Of a stretch of DNA of 64,000 bases, positions 2,249 through 64,000 are shown in pieces. The position numbers and the translations under genes are program-made. Source of the stretch: Nitrospirales bacterium. Its GTDB lineage: Bacteria; Nitrospirota; Nitrospiria; Nitrospirales; UBA8639. The DNA is taken from NCBI GenBank assembly GCA_963555755.3, contig OY820905.2:3040001-3104000 (forward strand), given 5' to 3'. The notes below the pieces were generated by a model. The model saw only the letters and a program-made list of their open reading frames with translations, ran no database searches and was not told the origin of the DNA. Position 1 is the stretch's first letter, and each line of letters begins with the position of its first letter.

Positions 2249-2405
2249 GGGTTCGCGCAAGAATAACTCCCCATGTTTGGGCGTCGATCCATCCCGTCTG
2301 GCGGCGTTGCTCGTCCTTTCCATACGAGGAGTATGCGCAGTCCTCGCGCCTTGCCAGACAGGTGTCTCAGCACCCAAACATGGGGAGTTATTCTTGCGCG
2401 AACCC
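2249..2405. mobile_element. MITE, 157 bp, ~33-bp TIR GGGTTCGCGCAAGAATAACTCCCCATGTTTGGG, TAA target duplication; carries the shared hairpin core
   Basis: TIRs read directly; TAA at 2246-2248 and 2406-2408. Confidence 0.85.
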
Positions 2406-2451
2406 TAAGGGTGGCTCCTTTTTCCTTCTGAATAAATAAGTCAATACTCAT

Positions 2452-2487
2452 GCCTGACACCAAGCCTGACACCAAGCCTGACACCAA
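2452..2487. repeat. Tandem repeat (GCCTGACACCAA)x3
   Basis: Three exact 12-bp units. Confidence 0.9.
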
Positions 2488-2582
2488 GCCCAAGCCACCT
2501 CAACTCGACACAAATCAGTCCCCCTTGTTAATCTCTTATCTATTCTATGCGACAATGAGTTCAACAATTCTGGATATGAAAG

Positions 2583-60678: not shown

Positions 60679-60682
60679 CTTC

Positions 60683-63600
60683 ATGCGCATTGCGGAAATG
60701 GCTATTGATGGGTTTGGAGTGTTTCGGGAAGTCACAGTTCCTGATGTGGATCCTAAGATGACCGTATTTGAGGGACAGAATGAAGCGGGAAAAACAACGC
60801 TCATGGCCTTTATTCGAGCCATCCTGTTCGGGTTTGAGGGCCGCCGGAATGGAGCGAACCGATATGAACCCGCTCGAGGGGGGCGCCATGGTGGAGCGCT
60901 GGTTGTCGAGACCGACGATGGCCGGCGATTTCGCATCGAACGGATTGATTCCAGTGCACGAGGACGGGTAAAAGTATCCGCGACATTTCCCTTCCAACCA
61001 ACAACTTCCGAATCGGAAACGACTCGTTCCGATGAAGTCGTTCTCCATGAGCTGTTATACGGGACCTCAAAACTGCTGTATCAAAATGTCTTTGCCTTTG
61101 GCATTGGGGAGCTTGAACGATTAGATACCCTCCAGGACGAAGAGGTCAGCCATCATATCTATACCGTTGGGATGGGGACGGGATTGACTCCACTCACTGT
61201 TGTCCAAAGTGGGTTGGAGGCCGAACAGGCTCAGCTGTTCAAGCCGGGAGGACGAAAGCCTCTCATGAACCAACTGTTACAAGGTTTGGAGGAATCGCAG
61301 GCCTCCATTCGTGATTTGCAAGCGTTGCCCGATGAATACAACACACTCCGAAATCGGTTACGTGTCCTCGAACAGGAAATTCCTGAAGATCAGAAAGAGC
61401 TGGAAGAGACCAAGACTCGTTGTGATTGGGCAGAATCTCTGGTGAAAGCAAGGACGGATTGGGAGCAGCTCCAAGTCGTACATCAGGAATTGCAACAAGA
61501 TCTTCCGATAATTGAAAGTTTTCCCGCCGGTGGAATCGAACGCCTTGCACAGGTGGAGCGGGCCTTGGGAAGCGTGGAAACGCGACTCGATGAAATACGA
61601 TCGACCATTCGGAAGGTGGTGGAACGACGAGTTAATCTGTGTCCGGACCCTCGGATTCTCAAACATCAAAACAATATTGAAGCCCTAGAAGATTTACGAG
61701 GTGAGTATAAGGGGGCGCTGGAAGCGTTTAGTGACCTGCGGTCTCGAGTGGTCGTGAGGCGAACTGTGCTGGATGAAATCCTGGGTCGCCTCGGCCCGGC
61801 GTGGGATGATTCCCGATTGGATCGATTTGAAGCGTCTATCCCTATCCGTGAGCGGGTTCGTGGATTACGAGATCGACTCGAGGGGTGCCGGCAGGAAGTG
61901 ATCGAAGCCCATCGTGCACAGCAAAATACCGAACGGCTGAAGAAAGAAAAGGATGGAGAGCTTGAGCGACTTCAGGAAAAATTAGAACAAATGATGGCCC
62001 CGGAGAGTCCCACGCGCGCCTCGTTGGATGAACGGGAACGAGCCATTGGTCAGTGGGTCCAACTCCAGCACCAGCGAGAGTTAACCCAACAACATCGTCA
62101 AGATTTGCAGATACAAACTACCGTCCTCGATGAGCAAGTTCAGACGACTACCAATGAATTGGCGTCCGTGGACGCACGCCGTGATCGATCGTGGTGGGCT
62201 CTGATTGGCGTCAGTGTGGTGTTCGTTGGATTAGGAGGCTATGCGGGAGTCCAGCAGGAATGGTCTCTAACAATTGTGTCATCGACGGCCGGAATGTTGG
62301 CGATTGGGTTGTTGTCCTGGTGGAGGCACGAAGTTGGGGTGCAACGCCGTGCGAGGGTCGGTGAACTGCAAGACTTGATTCAAGCGGTGACGGAGCAGTG
62401 GGAGGAACTTCAGGGAGAAACCCAGCGAGCAGAACGAGAGGAACAGACCCTCGTCGAAGATATGACTCGATTGAGTCAAGACATTCTGGGATTGGAACTC
62501 ACCTCTCTGGATGATACAGAATCCGCACGACGTGCGCTAGAAGCTGAGCGCCGGTTAACGGAGCGTCGAGAGGATATTAATATGTCCATCCAGGATGAGG
62601 AAGAAGCCTTAGTGAGTTTGCTCGAAACAGGCGAGGCGGCATTAAAAATTTGTCAAGAAGCCGAGGCCACCCAAGATAGTGCCCAGCAGGCTTGGGAGGA
62701 ATTTTTGACGAGCCTCGGACTTCCGGAGGATTTAACGCCGGATGGTGCCCTCGAAGTCATTACCGGGGCCGAACGGGCTCAAGGGCAATTACGGGAATGG
62801 CGGGATGTGACGGGAGAATGGCAACGAGTGAAACATTTCGTGGAAAAAACGGCCATGGAATTGAATCGGGTATTGGAGCAGTGTGGCCGGGATGTGGTGG
62901 AGGTTGAACAGTCTCCCGCCGCCTTGACGTCCCTTCGGAAATCGTTGGAACAGAGTCTGACCAGTCAGCAGGAGTTGGCTCGGTTGACGGAACTCATTGC
63001 CGAGCGACAGGTGGAGGTGGAAGCTGCCGAATCGGAAAAAGTGCGATATTGGGATCAGCTTCAGGCGTTACTCCAGGCCGGGGGCGCGTCGGATAATGAG
63101 ACGTTTCGGAAACGCGCAGGGCTTTATACTCGTCAGGTGGAACTGGAGCGGCAGCAACGGCAATTGGAGTTTGCCCTCAAGGTCCATGCCGGATCTGCGG
63201 AGCGCTATCAGGACATGGAAAGCATTCTATCCAACAAATCGCGAGCGGAGTTAGAACGGGAGTGGAGTGAAGCCAAACGAGAAGGCCAACAACGGTTAGT
63301 CGAGGTGCTGACAAGAAAGCTGCAAGAGAAGGGACGCGTGGAGCAACGGCTTCAGGATCTTGAACGCAATGAACGATTGTCATTCGTGATGTTGGAACGC
63401 CAGGAGTTGTTGGCCCAATTGAAACAACATGCGAATCGATGGGCCATTCGCGCCGTCTGCCAGCATCTGTTGGATCAAGCCCGTCAAGTGTATGAGCGGG
63501 AGCGGCAGCCCGCCGTGCTGCGTGAAGCGTCGAAATTTTTTGCCTCCATGACGGGAGGCCGATACGTGCGTGTCAAAGTCCCGTTGGGAGAAATGCGATT

Positions 63601-63913
63601 AGAAGTCGAAGCGGAAAACGGCACCTCCTCGCCCACCGATATTCTGAGTCGTGGGACAGCTGAACAATTATATTTGGCCATGCGGCTCGCGTTTATCTGT
63701 GAGTATGCCAAGCATGCTGGTCCCCTGCCGTTAGTCATCGATGATATTTTAGTCAACTTTGATCCGGAGCGGGCCAGGGCCACTATAGCGGTGTTGGGCC
63801 AGATTGCGGTGACGCATCAAGTGCTGGTGTTCACCTGTCATCCCCACGTGAGCCGATGGTTTGAAGAAACTCTTGAGGGGGTCTCGGTTCGGCCCTTTCC
63901 CAAAAGCTCTTAA
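60683..63913 (+). CDS. yhaN: Rad50/SbcC-like coiled-coil ATPase (YhaN/AAA_27 type) with two central TM helices
   Basis: G.NEAGKTT, LSRGT.EQLYLAMR, DDILVNFD, FTCH. Confidence 0.88.
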   Translation: MRIAEMAIDGFGVFREVTVPDVDPKMTVFEGQNEAGKTTLMAFIRAILFGFEGRRNGANRYEPARGGRHGGALVVETDDGRRFRIERIDSSARGRVKVSATFPFQPTTSESETTRSDEVVLHELLYGTSKLLYQNVFAFGIGELERLDTLQDEEVSHHIYTVGMGTGLTPLTVVQSGLEAEQAQLFKPGGRKPLMNQLLQGLEESQASIRDLQALPDEYNTLRNRLRVLEQEIPEDQKELEETKTRCDWAESLVKARTDWEQLQVVHQELQQDLPIIESFPAGGIERLAQVERALGSVETRLDEIRSTIRKVVERRVNLCPDPRILKHQNNIEALEDLRGEYKGALEAFSDLRSRVVVRRTVLDEILGRLGPAWDDSRLDRFEASIPIRERVRGLRDRLEGCRQEVIEAHRAQQNTERLKKEKDGELERLQEKLEQMMAPESPTRASLDERERAIGQWVQLQHQRELTQQHRQDLQIQTTVLDEQVQTTTNELASVDARRDRSWWALIGVSVVFVGLGGYAGVQQEWSLTIVSSTAGMLAIGLLSWWRHEVGVQRRARVGELQDLIQAVTEQWEELQGETQRAEREEQTLVEDMTRLSQDILGLELTSLDDTESARRALEAERRLTERREDINMSIQDEEEALVSLLETGEAALKICQEAEATQDSAQQAWEEFLTSLGLPEDLTPDGALEVITGAERAQGQLREWRDVTGEWQRVKHFVEKTAMELNRVLEQCGRDVVEVEQSPAALTSLRKSLEQSLTSQQELARLTELIAERQVEVEAAESEKVRYWDQLQALLQAGGASDNETFRKRAGLYTRQVELERQQRQLEFALKVHAGSAERYQDMESILSNKSRAELEREWSEAKREGQQRLVEVLTRKLQEKGRVEQRLQDLERNERLSFVMLERQELLAQLKQHANRWAIRAVCQHLLDQARQVYERERQPAVLREASKFFASMTGGRYVRVKVPLGEMRLEVEAENGTSSPTDILSRGTAEQLYLAMRLAFICEYAKHAGPLPLVIDDILVNFDPERARATIAVLGQIAVTHQVLVFTCHPHVSRWFEETLEGVSVRPFPKSS

Positions 63914-64000
63914 GGCGTTGTTGAAAAAGGCCACCAGCGGCGTTCTCGGGGCTTTGTCGTGCTCACGTACTGATGTACGCTGCGGGCGCCAAATCCCCTG
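63914..64000. mobile_element. MITE family A, truncated by the window end
   Basis: TGTTGAAAAAGG then GCGGCGTTCTCG...CTCACGTAC-GTACG, starting right after the TAA stop. Confidence 0.75.

Follow-up and report, generated by a model that had tools for sequence, protein, structure and literature searches.

Ten short elements in the window, the 64,000-nucleotide stretch of Nitrospirales DNA analysed here, carry five distinct types of transposon end and share one predicted hairpin, the core of which is the predicted folded centre of the ERIC repeats rather than a new motif. We propose, at slightly short of an even chance, that they are non-autonomous type II MITEs, probably mobilised in trans by transposases of several DDE families, and that their ERIC-type predicted hairpin, likely an RNA bound by a host factor, is probably needed for making new copies. 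The role of the conserved centre of ERIC and the mode of ERIC spread have been standing questions since 1990; with an alignment of sufficient depth to single out invariant bases, as a module common to eight phyla provides, they become questions for mutagenesis and pull-down. The usual view of MITEs as decayed IS interiors also changes, the interior looking older than the ends in these elements. In this genome the type A leader (described below) serves as an internal neutral control, and end-matched transposase families are available for tests of trans-mobilisation.

All ten elements lie where the original prediction had placed them (Table), and the five end types are indeed distinct, with just 2-9 of 16 terminal bases in common; the target duplications (TAA, GGA, TTAA, TTAT and, with one mismatch, one of 8 bp) are present. 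Other details were amended. The exact core string GCGGCGTT occurs in just five of the ten elements, and the type C core has the predicted lower loop but not the canonical GGA/GA upper loop. The left terminal repeats claimed at 13663 and 36919 are copies of the end, but internal ones, the outer left ends lying at the start of the longer units in the Table. The stop codon of the open reading frame at 37073-38065 comes from the right end of the type A unit at 36851..37083.

Table. Elements and predicted hairpin cores in the window (positions are those of the window)
Position	Strand	Core	Description
2249..2405	-	2298-2356	Type C MITE, 157 bp, ISAzo13-type ends, 3-bp TAA duplication; short core, lower loop, lacks canonical GGA/GA
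3653..3832	+		Related 180-bp MITE, TTA duplication, upper GGA/GA-type loop only
13589..13926	+	13828-13906	Type A unit, 5-bp duplication ATAAT; order: outer end, leader, inner end copy (13663), inserted small hairpins, core, right end
14180..14325	+	14204-14282	Type A hairpin lacking leader, TTA flanks
27605..27895	+		Type H MITE, IS1182-type ends (IS1182 L001)
27702-27826		27726-27804	Type A hairpin nested in the type H MITE
33865..33988	-	33887-33965	Type D MITE, GGA duplication, sits in REP-like repeat
35103..35243	+	35135-35213	Type B MITE, TTAA duplication, IS5-type ends (IS5 L294); core with two stacked GGA/GA loops
36851..37083	+	36985-37063	Type A unit, 68-bp leader, inner end copy (36919), 5-bp duplication AAACA
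38588..41000	-		Intact IS66-family element, 8-bp duplication, no core
41054..41194	-	41084-41162	Type B MITE, TTAT duplication
47474..47820	+		Type J MITE (upper loop only), type I MITE nested inside
57466..57608	-	57497-57576	Type E MITE, IS66 ends, 8-bp duplication (7/8); core joins C-like lower loop to B-like upper module
63914..64000	-		Type A hairpin crossing window end, continuing to G000:C1:3104011 and beyond

The predicted hairpin is common to all ten elements and, as the original prediction held, is specific to one strand and kept across unrelated end types, judging from predicted folds and covariation. The covariation extends across seven further phyla. Among 76 cores, 92.6% of cells are paired, against 71.1% in the shuffled control and 22-48% when partners are slid, in counts that took in related sequences and with a search pattern that itself fixed part of the motif; RNAalifold, unaided, recovers identical helices. 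Of 129 cores, 127 retain the G-U pair adjoining the tandem G-A, though the pattern permitted A-U. Paired double changes were seen in single copies (32), and among variants common to several copies the purine strand shows more G-T than A-C (50:27, P=0.012), with no such preference among singletons (81:73) or in family B (6:7); taken alone, the contrast between shared and singleton variants falls short of significance (Fisher P=0.09). The J, H and I elements lack the lower loop and reach 49-121 copies, so the full core is not required in every family.

In 93% of cores it is the purine strand that folds better, the margin being 6.0 kcal/mol with RNA parameters and 1.4 kcal/mol with DNA parameters. 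The active form might instead be a single-stranded DNA hairpin recognised by a host DNA-binding or replication protein and aiding end pairing in a very short element, an alternative we hold to be quite improbable. It fits with the same strand folding better in DNA parameters too (86% of cores), with a geometry fixed at 18-22 nt per side (a range bounded by the search pattern) and with arm-to-arm copying, which implies that the hairpin forms in DNA; however, the cores show no leading/lagging bias relative to replication (389:404), and a near-invariant G-U beside tandem G-A, a combination typical of RNA motifs, suggests RNA. In the trans-mobilised MITE reading that we prefer, the active form would be an RNA with the predicted fold of the purine strand, bound by a putative conserved host protein, while arm-to-arm template switching may preserve the symmetry of the hairpin.

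A profile built from nine window cores finds at least 454 copies in the genome at E<=0.01, compared with 0 matches at E<=1 in the reversed genome. With covariance model R1 the eight complete window cores score 36-60 bits (seven of them in the training set), the type C core (2298-2356) 23 bits, and the copy cut by the window end 21 bits. Of 40 relatives of this genome, 27 contain the core, which also recurs in sequence records from at least seven further bacterial phyla. A plasmid search with a type A unit gave no match, and at gathering score no Rfam family falls on any window core. A first, looser pattern scan was discarded: one phage gene accounted for most of its hits, which were matches by chance. 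Of its 121 loci, 80 were examined and gave 28 distinct matches.

The elements are short and non-coding, bear terminal inverted repeats, and resemble insertion sequences at their ends only (B and IS5, C and ISAzo13, H and IS1182, E and IS66), as in type II MITEs; the homology of the interior to a parent IS that defines type I MITEs was not seen in a small sample, and no parent was found for types A and D. Duplication length follows the end type, being 4 bp in 91 of 113 type B elements, 3 bp in 85 of 152 type C, 8 bp in 9 of 22 type E and, at the outer end, 5 bp in 62 of 216 type A. Type D was considered as a relative of type A and is kept separate because just 8 of 16 terminal bases are shared; type F is related to A (14 of 16).

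Each family could be a deletion derivative of an IS that held the core inside one end, the parents being now rare or lost, as the non-hairpin leader of type A, which resembles an IS end, might suggest. The original prediction denied a derivation from any one IS, and this stands for the four end-matching families examined: intact IS5, ISAzo13, IS66 and IS1182 elements, in a sample of one to three per family, lack a core match. Type E and IS66, including the intact element of the window, share about 15-18 terminal bases, with a best interior match of 12 bp, and one intact ISAzo13 has type C ends (L582). None of the 84 ORFs adjoining non-enteric cores matches a transposase (of 127 neighbours, 84 were scanned, 41 others lying next to copies in enterobacteria and 2 at a duplicate locus), and the 1,360-bp 'long A' elements, considered as autonomous parents, result from IS110 having inserted into the MITE at a single position in its arm. 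A deletion origin is accordingly rated very unlikely. Within this genome, one ISAzo13 query gave no match, and no IS5 exceeds the NF033581 cut-off. For type A, 20 loci (this genome and relatives) and viral stretches (120 and 34) yielded no partner IS, and the ends of two IS5-like elements in this genome are just loosely similar. Viral contigs contain no type C ends.

Combinations of cores and ends recur. Nested A hairpins are found in 35 of 81 H elements, IS66 ends surround either the core or an unrelated repeat, C2 elements carry one, the other or both of two core variants, and one locus has a different core variant between B ends (L301). Under the reading of trans-mobilised MITEs, the hairpin would acquire new ends by nesting in another MITE or beside an IS end, the outer ends then being used, with several DDE transposase families likely acting in trans.

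Type A contains its own internal comparison. In many type A elements the outer end, flanked by a 5-bp duplication, lies about 68 bp past the left repeat noted earlier, and identity between copies is 62-64% in the intervening leader, 91-97% in the inner end, core and right end, and 70-75% in the apical loop. A perfect 5-bp duplication is found in 28 of 46 type A units, where about 10% would be expected had the leader diverged after insertion. The contrast between leader (about 63%) and hairpin parts (91-97%) suggests that, as the elements spread, the hairpin was selected or specifically copied, and selection may act at the level of the element's own spread. Homoplasy in the leader is high (265 of 496 site pairs). 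The idea that the leader is the 3' part of a transposase gene was rejected: each frame is interrupted by stops in 21-69 of 70 sequences, and third positions show no pattern; a role as promoter, inspected by eye, was not established. Hairpin-limited gene conversion would equally yield the leader contrast.

Copying of the hairpin alone via RNA or cDNA, with a resident group II intron reverse transcriptase as one candidate enzyme and existing ends overwritten or joined, would homogenise the hairpin with no selection at each jump, and accounts equally well for the leader contrast. Group II intron reverse transcriptase genes occur in the window and at many loci, and head-to-tail arrays of whole units exist (L219 and L244, four copies each). 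We nevertheless consider it unlikely, since duplication length tracks end type (3, 4, 5 and 8 bp), as DDE insertion predicts, and the 84 ORFs adjoining non-enteric cores include no reverse transcriptase.

The position of the cores relative to genes, based on home-made gene calls (4,258 genes), bears on another possibility, namely host selection on transcripts containing the fold (RNase E or III processing, stability or read-through), as has been reported in ERIC and Correia elements. Two reviews report RNase E and RNase III effects (PMC10969869, PMC3184786), and type A is biased to just behind stop codons (42 antisense to 5 sense within 30 bp). This bias is, however, reversed in type B (13 sense to 5) and absent in type C, in eight cases the type A end itself merely provides the stop codon, sense equals antisense across all core families (262:262 relative to host transcription), and the genes neighbouring the cores (the 84 ORFs) have no function in common, making such selection, in our judgement, distinctly improbable.

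The core matches the central inverted repeat of ERIC (the ERIC1R/ERIC2 region) in structure and motif, if not in full sequence and, for type C, in part only: ERIC (IRU, RU-1), like the window cores, has a lower loop, tandem G-A, a G-U pair and an apical stem. In E. coli K-12, a model trained on window cores alone puts four ERIC-type copies first. Outside this centre the two differ, ERIC being about 127 bp with TA termini and outer arms, while the window elements are 122-338 bp, lack these arms, and have IS5, ISAzo13, IS66 or IS1182-type ends with 3-, 4-, 5- or 8-bp duplications. ERIC was described from two families (Enterobacteriaceae and Vibrionaceae), a range exceeded by a core present in seven phyla. 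We take the MITEEc1_IS630 entry to be ERIC. PMC11602168 names this entry. Both sides of the apical stem of the core are spanned by two ERIC primers, ERIC1R and ERIC2 (sequences in PMC11734338). The original prediction would have been undone had the core belonged to a described repeat family, and this is partly so, because the core is the centre of the ERIC family; its travel with many ends and through many phyla was not found in literature searches, which returned no paper describing a shared core.

More distant likenesses were also found. Kink-turns (box C/D), like the core, combine tandem G-A pairs with an adjacent non-Watson-Crick pair; the 3-nt bulge 5' of the kink-turn tandem G-A is replaced in the core by 1 or 0 nt in the covarying register. 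The Rfam entries V_AS5 (RF02818), CssrA (RF02798) and Ysr49 (RF02766), which are single-genus sRNAs, overlap enterobacterial copies of the element, but match no window core at gathering score and none of four genome seeds at E<=1. For the BOX element of Streptococcus pneumoniae, which is modular (boxA-boxB-boxC), the primer alone was compared, and BOX-A1R (PMC11734338) has both lower-loop halves in the type-B form. Correia (NEMIS, CREE)-type elements (L524, L497, L508), with end variants described in PMC2649163, share the lower loop with the core and have an apex of the form TAC-loop-GTA, but lack the tandem G-A loop and have a shorter middle stem and TA ends; the window ends differ from those of L524 and L508, lacking the 26-bp Correia terminal repeat and TA duplication. 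Their model scores are weak (13-16 bits, and 25 bits for the related L459). ERIC, Correia, BOX and hundreds of uncatalogued MITE families might all be one ancient pan-bacterial selfish module, a folded RNA that recruits a universal host factor, is needed for its own spread and swaps ends like a cassette, a conjecture we find possible but doubtful. According to a 2011 review (PMC3184786), Neisseria and E. coli MITEs have no sequence or structural motif in common in their cores; our comparisons suggest that the lower loop and the apex, at least, are shared.

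The feature is real: a hairpin with two internal loops, corresponding to the centre of ERIC, sits in this genome on ends other than ERIC's. All ten of the gene-less mobile elements (MITEs) originally said to carry it in the window were found, and the five end types (A-E), predicted to be unrelated, have 2-9 of 16 terminal bases in common. Each element is predicted to fold on one strand into a rod: a lower internal loop (AAGGC facing AACGC, with variants) leads through a variable stem to a tandem G-A loop and a G-U pair, and six base pairs make up the apical stem. With a profile of nine window cores, the 4.62-Mb genome gives 454 matches at E≤0.01; the reversed genome gives none at E≤1. 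BLAST with eleven family seeds, which include further MITE families, assigned 1,071 loci in the genome (A 290, C 173, B 123, J 121, I 100, C2 90 and 89, H 49, E 16, D 12, K 8; the two C2 counts are two modules, mostly in the same elements). Type C has the lower loop without the canonical GGA/GA loop; its model scores are 20-23 bits, those of the remaining types 36-60 bits. Families J, H, I and K are without the lower loop but also form rods, in which one strand has purine-rich mismatches. Type B elements of three related genomes (G002, G011 and G018) have an apex ∼40 bp longer. Small hairpins of 20-30 bp are inserted in type A and E elements, and head-to-tail arrays of 3 or 4 whole elements also occur (see the table).

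Positions of elements and neighbouring features (G000:C1 is the contig of this genome; L numbers are loci retrieved for comparison)
Feature	Position	Detail
Type A unit	window 13589-13926	leader 13589-13662
Type A unit	window 36851-37083	leader 36851-36918
Small inserted hairpins	window 13700-13825; G000:C1:1137803, 3473790	
Head-to-tail arrays	L219:1450-2050; L244:270-790; G000:C1:454041-454386	
IS66 compared with type E ends	window 38588-41000	
Druantia DruA-like domain	window 40037-40924; L009; L011	
IS630 between type C arms	G000:C1:2332331-2333548	L006
Element with weak IS1 match	window 18590-20450	1.86 kb
Group II intron RT frames	window 15333-18060	domain matches 16254-16372, 17985-18060
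Stretch with high RNA depth	window 33034-33258	intergenic
IS110 in type A arm	G000:C1:2353104-2354317 and 12 more loci	L003
REP-like dispersed repeat	window 33776-34070, 45029-45218, 46663-46820	

In an alignment of 76 cores (7 from the window and 69 of 129 from GTDB pattern matches), 92.6% of cells are paired, compared to 71.1% after shuffling and 22-48% with slid partners. Both-sided change occurs at 9 of the 13 pairs, covariation counts being inflated by kinship among cores, and RNAalifold recovers the same helices. The three pairs of each stem adjoining the lower loop, which lie beyond the search pattern, are 65-94% paired (27-67% when shuffled). The G-U pair is retained in 127 of the 129 cores, and 93% of cores have better predicted folding on the purine strand. 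These alignments and predictions indicate a conserved fold that is specific to one strand.

A pattern covering both loops, for which ∼2 chance matches are expected in the whole GTDB collection at even base composition, occurs there in at least 121 stretches. The 80 matches listed span Bacteroidota, Pseudomonadota, Campylobacterota, Planctomycetota, Actinomycetota, Spirochaetota and Bacillota, and the distribution of these matches points to a pan-bacterial core. A covariance model built with cores of other phyla (cross-phylum model) also finds matches in 27 of 40 relatives of this genome. One pattern match (L254) is a 127-bp element present in 5,426/5,426 E. coli genomes at a median of 11 places, and the ERIC1R and ERIC2 primers, as given in PMC11734338, span both sides of its apical stem. 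In E. coli K-12, the top four sites of a model from eight window cores alone (E 3.5e-5 to 1.5e-3) all fall within the 16 matches of the cross-phylum model, and the seven weaker matches of the window-only model fall outside them. Elements with the Correia end variants listed in PMC2649163 have the lower loop and apex but lack the G-A loop, and give weak model scores. The BOX-A1R primer contains both halves of the lower loop (for BOX, the primer was compared).

The core is the centre of a described repeat family, which counts in part against the original inference, and its occurrence on non-ERIC ends is what is new. PMC3184786 and PMC10969869 give Enterobacteriaceae and Vibrionaceae as the range of ERIC and explain MITEs as products of IS decay; according to PMC3184786, the cores of Neisseria and E. 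coli MITEs have no motif in common. A census that grouped 1.4 million MITEs at a 95% identity level found them to be genus-specific (PMC11602168). The shared core is not described in the accessible sections of PMC2229807, PMC3049150, PMC2267715, PMC13714241, PMC12288879 and bioRxiv 2026.09.15.751765, and the literature searched, mainly open-access main texts, yielded no description of a core shared across MITE families.

Type B ends are found on a 1,296-bp IS5 (L294), type C ends on a 1,309-bp ISAzo13 with TAA flanks (L582), and type H ends match an IS1182 of this genome; for type E, the match to an IS66 in the window is limited to 15-18 bases. By these terminal matches, the ends appear to derive from different transposase families. 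None of these intact IS5, ISAzo13, IS66 and IS1182 elements gave a core-model match of note, which supports the claim that the core is not a deletion derivative, as far as these four IS families are concerned, and 84 ORFs adjoining non-enteric cores gave no transposase family match. One query found no ISAzo13 in this genome and no IS5 exceeded the model cut-off, so the partners of types B and C may have been lost from it. Among other mobile elements, an IS630 carries the same (left) arm of the type C MITE on both flanks, with the core absent, and a DruA-like domain occurs in three abundant IS families (IS66, ISAs1 and IS4) as a second ORF or fusion. The element with a weak IS1 match is bounded by 30-bp inverted ends and has an ORF of 544 aa, and the two consecutive RT frames are probably one intron within another.

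Nesting and mixed combinations of ends and cores suggest that hairpins gain new ends. Among H elements, a nested A hairpin is present in 35 of 81; type C elements contain A, B, H and J-like ones, and J elements contain I. Between IS66 ends lies the core in some elements and an unrelated repeat in others; type E combines a C-like lower loop with a B-like upper module, and C2 elements contain two core variants, singly or together. In the type A hairpin, the first 7 bases of both ends agree in 66% of 227 copies (34% when shuffled), and single-copy changes include 32 pairing-preserving double changes versus 154 G-T or A-C; together these are the mark of arm-to-arm copying. Such copying would erase the internal loops unless these were retained, and the loop motifs, originally noted to largely persist, do so: in types A, B and C, 86-100% of copies have each motif intact.

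The type A unit comprises an outer end, leader, inner end copy, core and right end. The sequence first taken as its left terminus is correctly an end copy, but often internal rather than the element boundary: among 216 copies, a 5-bp duplication lies at the outer end 60-85 bp further left in 62 and at the inner end copy in 3, while 32 copies are inside type H elements and 119 have no boundary call. Between type A copies (units of 190 and 214 bp compared), identity is 62-64% in the leader and 70-75% in the apical loop, but reaches 91-97% in the inner end, the core and the right end. Perfect duplications remain in 28 of 46 units, compared to ∼10% expected had leader divergence followed insertion; therefore, the leader diverged along lineages of transposing copies, and the hairpin did not. 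We read this as selection acting in the element's own cycle; the main rival is that the hairpin alone is copied. The leader is 68 bp long in 72 of 114 copies despite an identity of ∼65%, and 265 of 496 variable-site pairs are incompatible with a tree. Shared variants favor G-T over A-C (50:27, P=0.012) and singletons show no preference (81:73), a contrast that is not significant (P=0.09); family B variants show no G-T preference. The core strand is unbiased relative to co-directional genes (262:262) and replication direction (389:404). Just behind stop codons, type A is biased in orientation (42:5), in part because its end supplies a stop; no other family is so biased, and type B leans the opposite way.

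The intergenic stretch listed in the table reaches contig depths of ∼8,000 and 1,800 in two RNA runs versus single digits nearby, has no Rfam match at E≤1, and is possibly an abundant uncatalogued RNA. All 13 matches of one IS110 adjoin a single site in the 146-bp type A hairpin arm, with type A sequence on both sides in 11 and on one side in 2; 72 sites are empty. Its 5' non-coding end contains short patches similar to target halves and donor halves, an arrangement like that of a bridge RNA. Two further IS110s (L004 and L005) also lie within type A hairpins, and type D and 3/3 type F copies listed occupy the same GGA site in the REP-like repeat.
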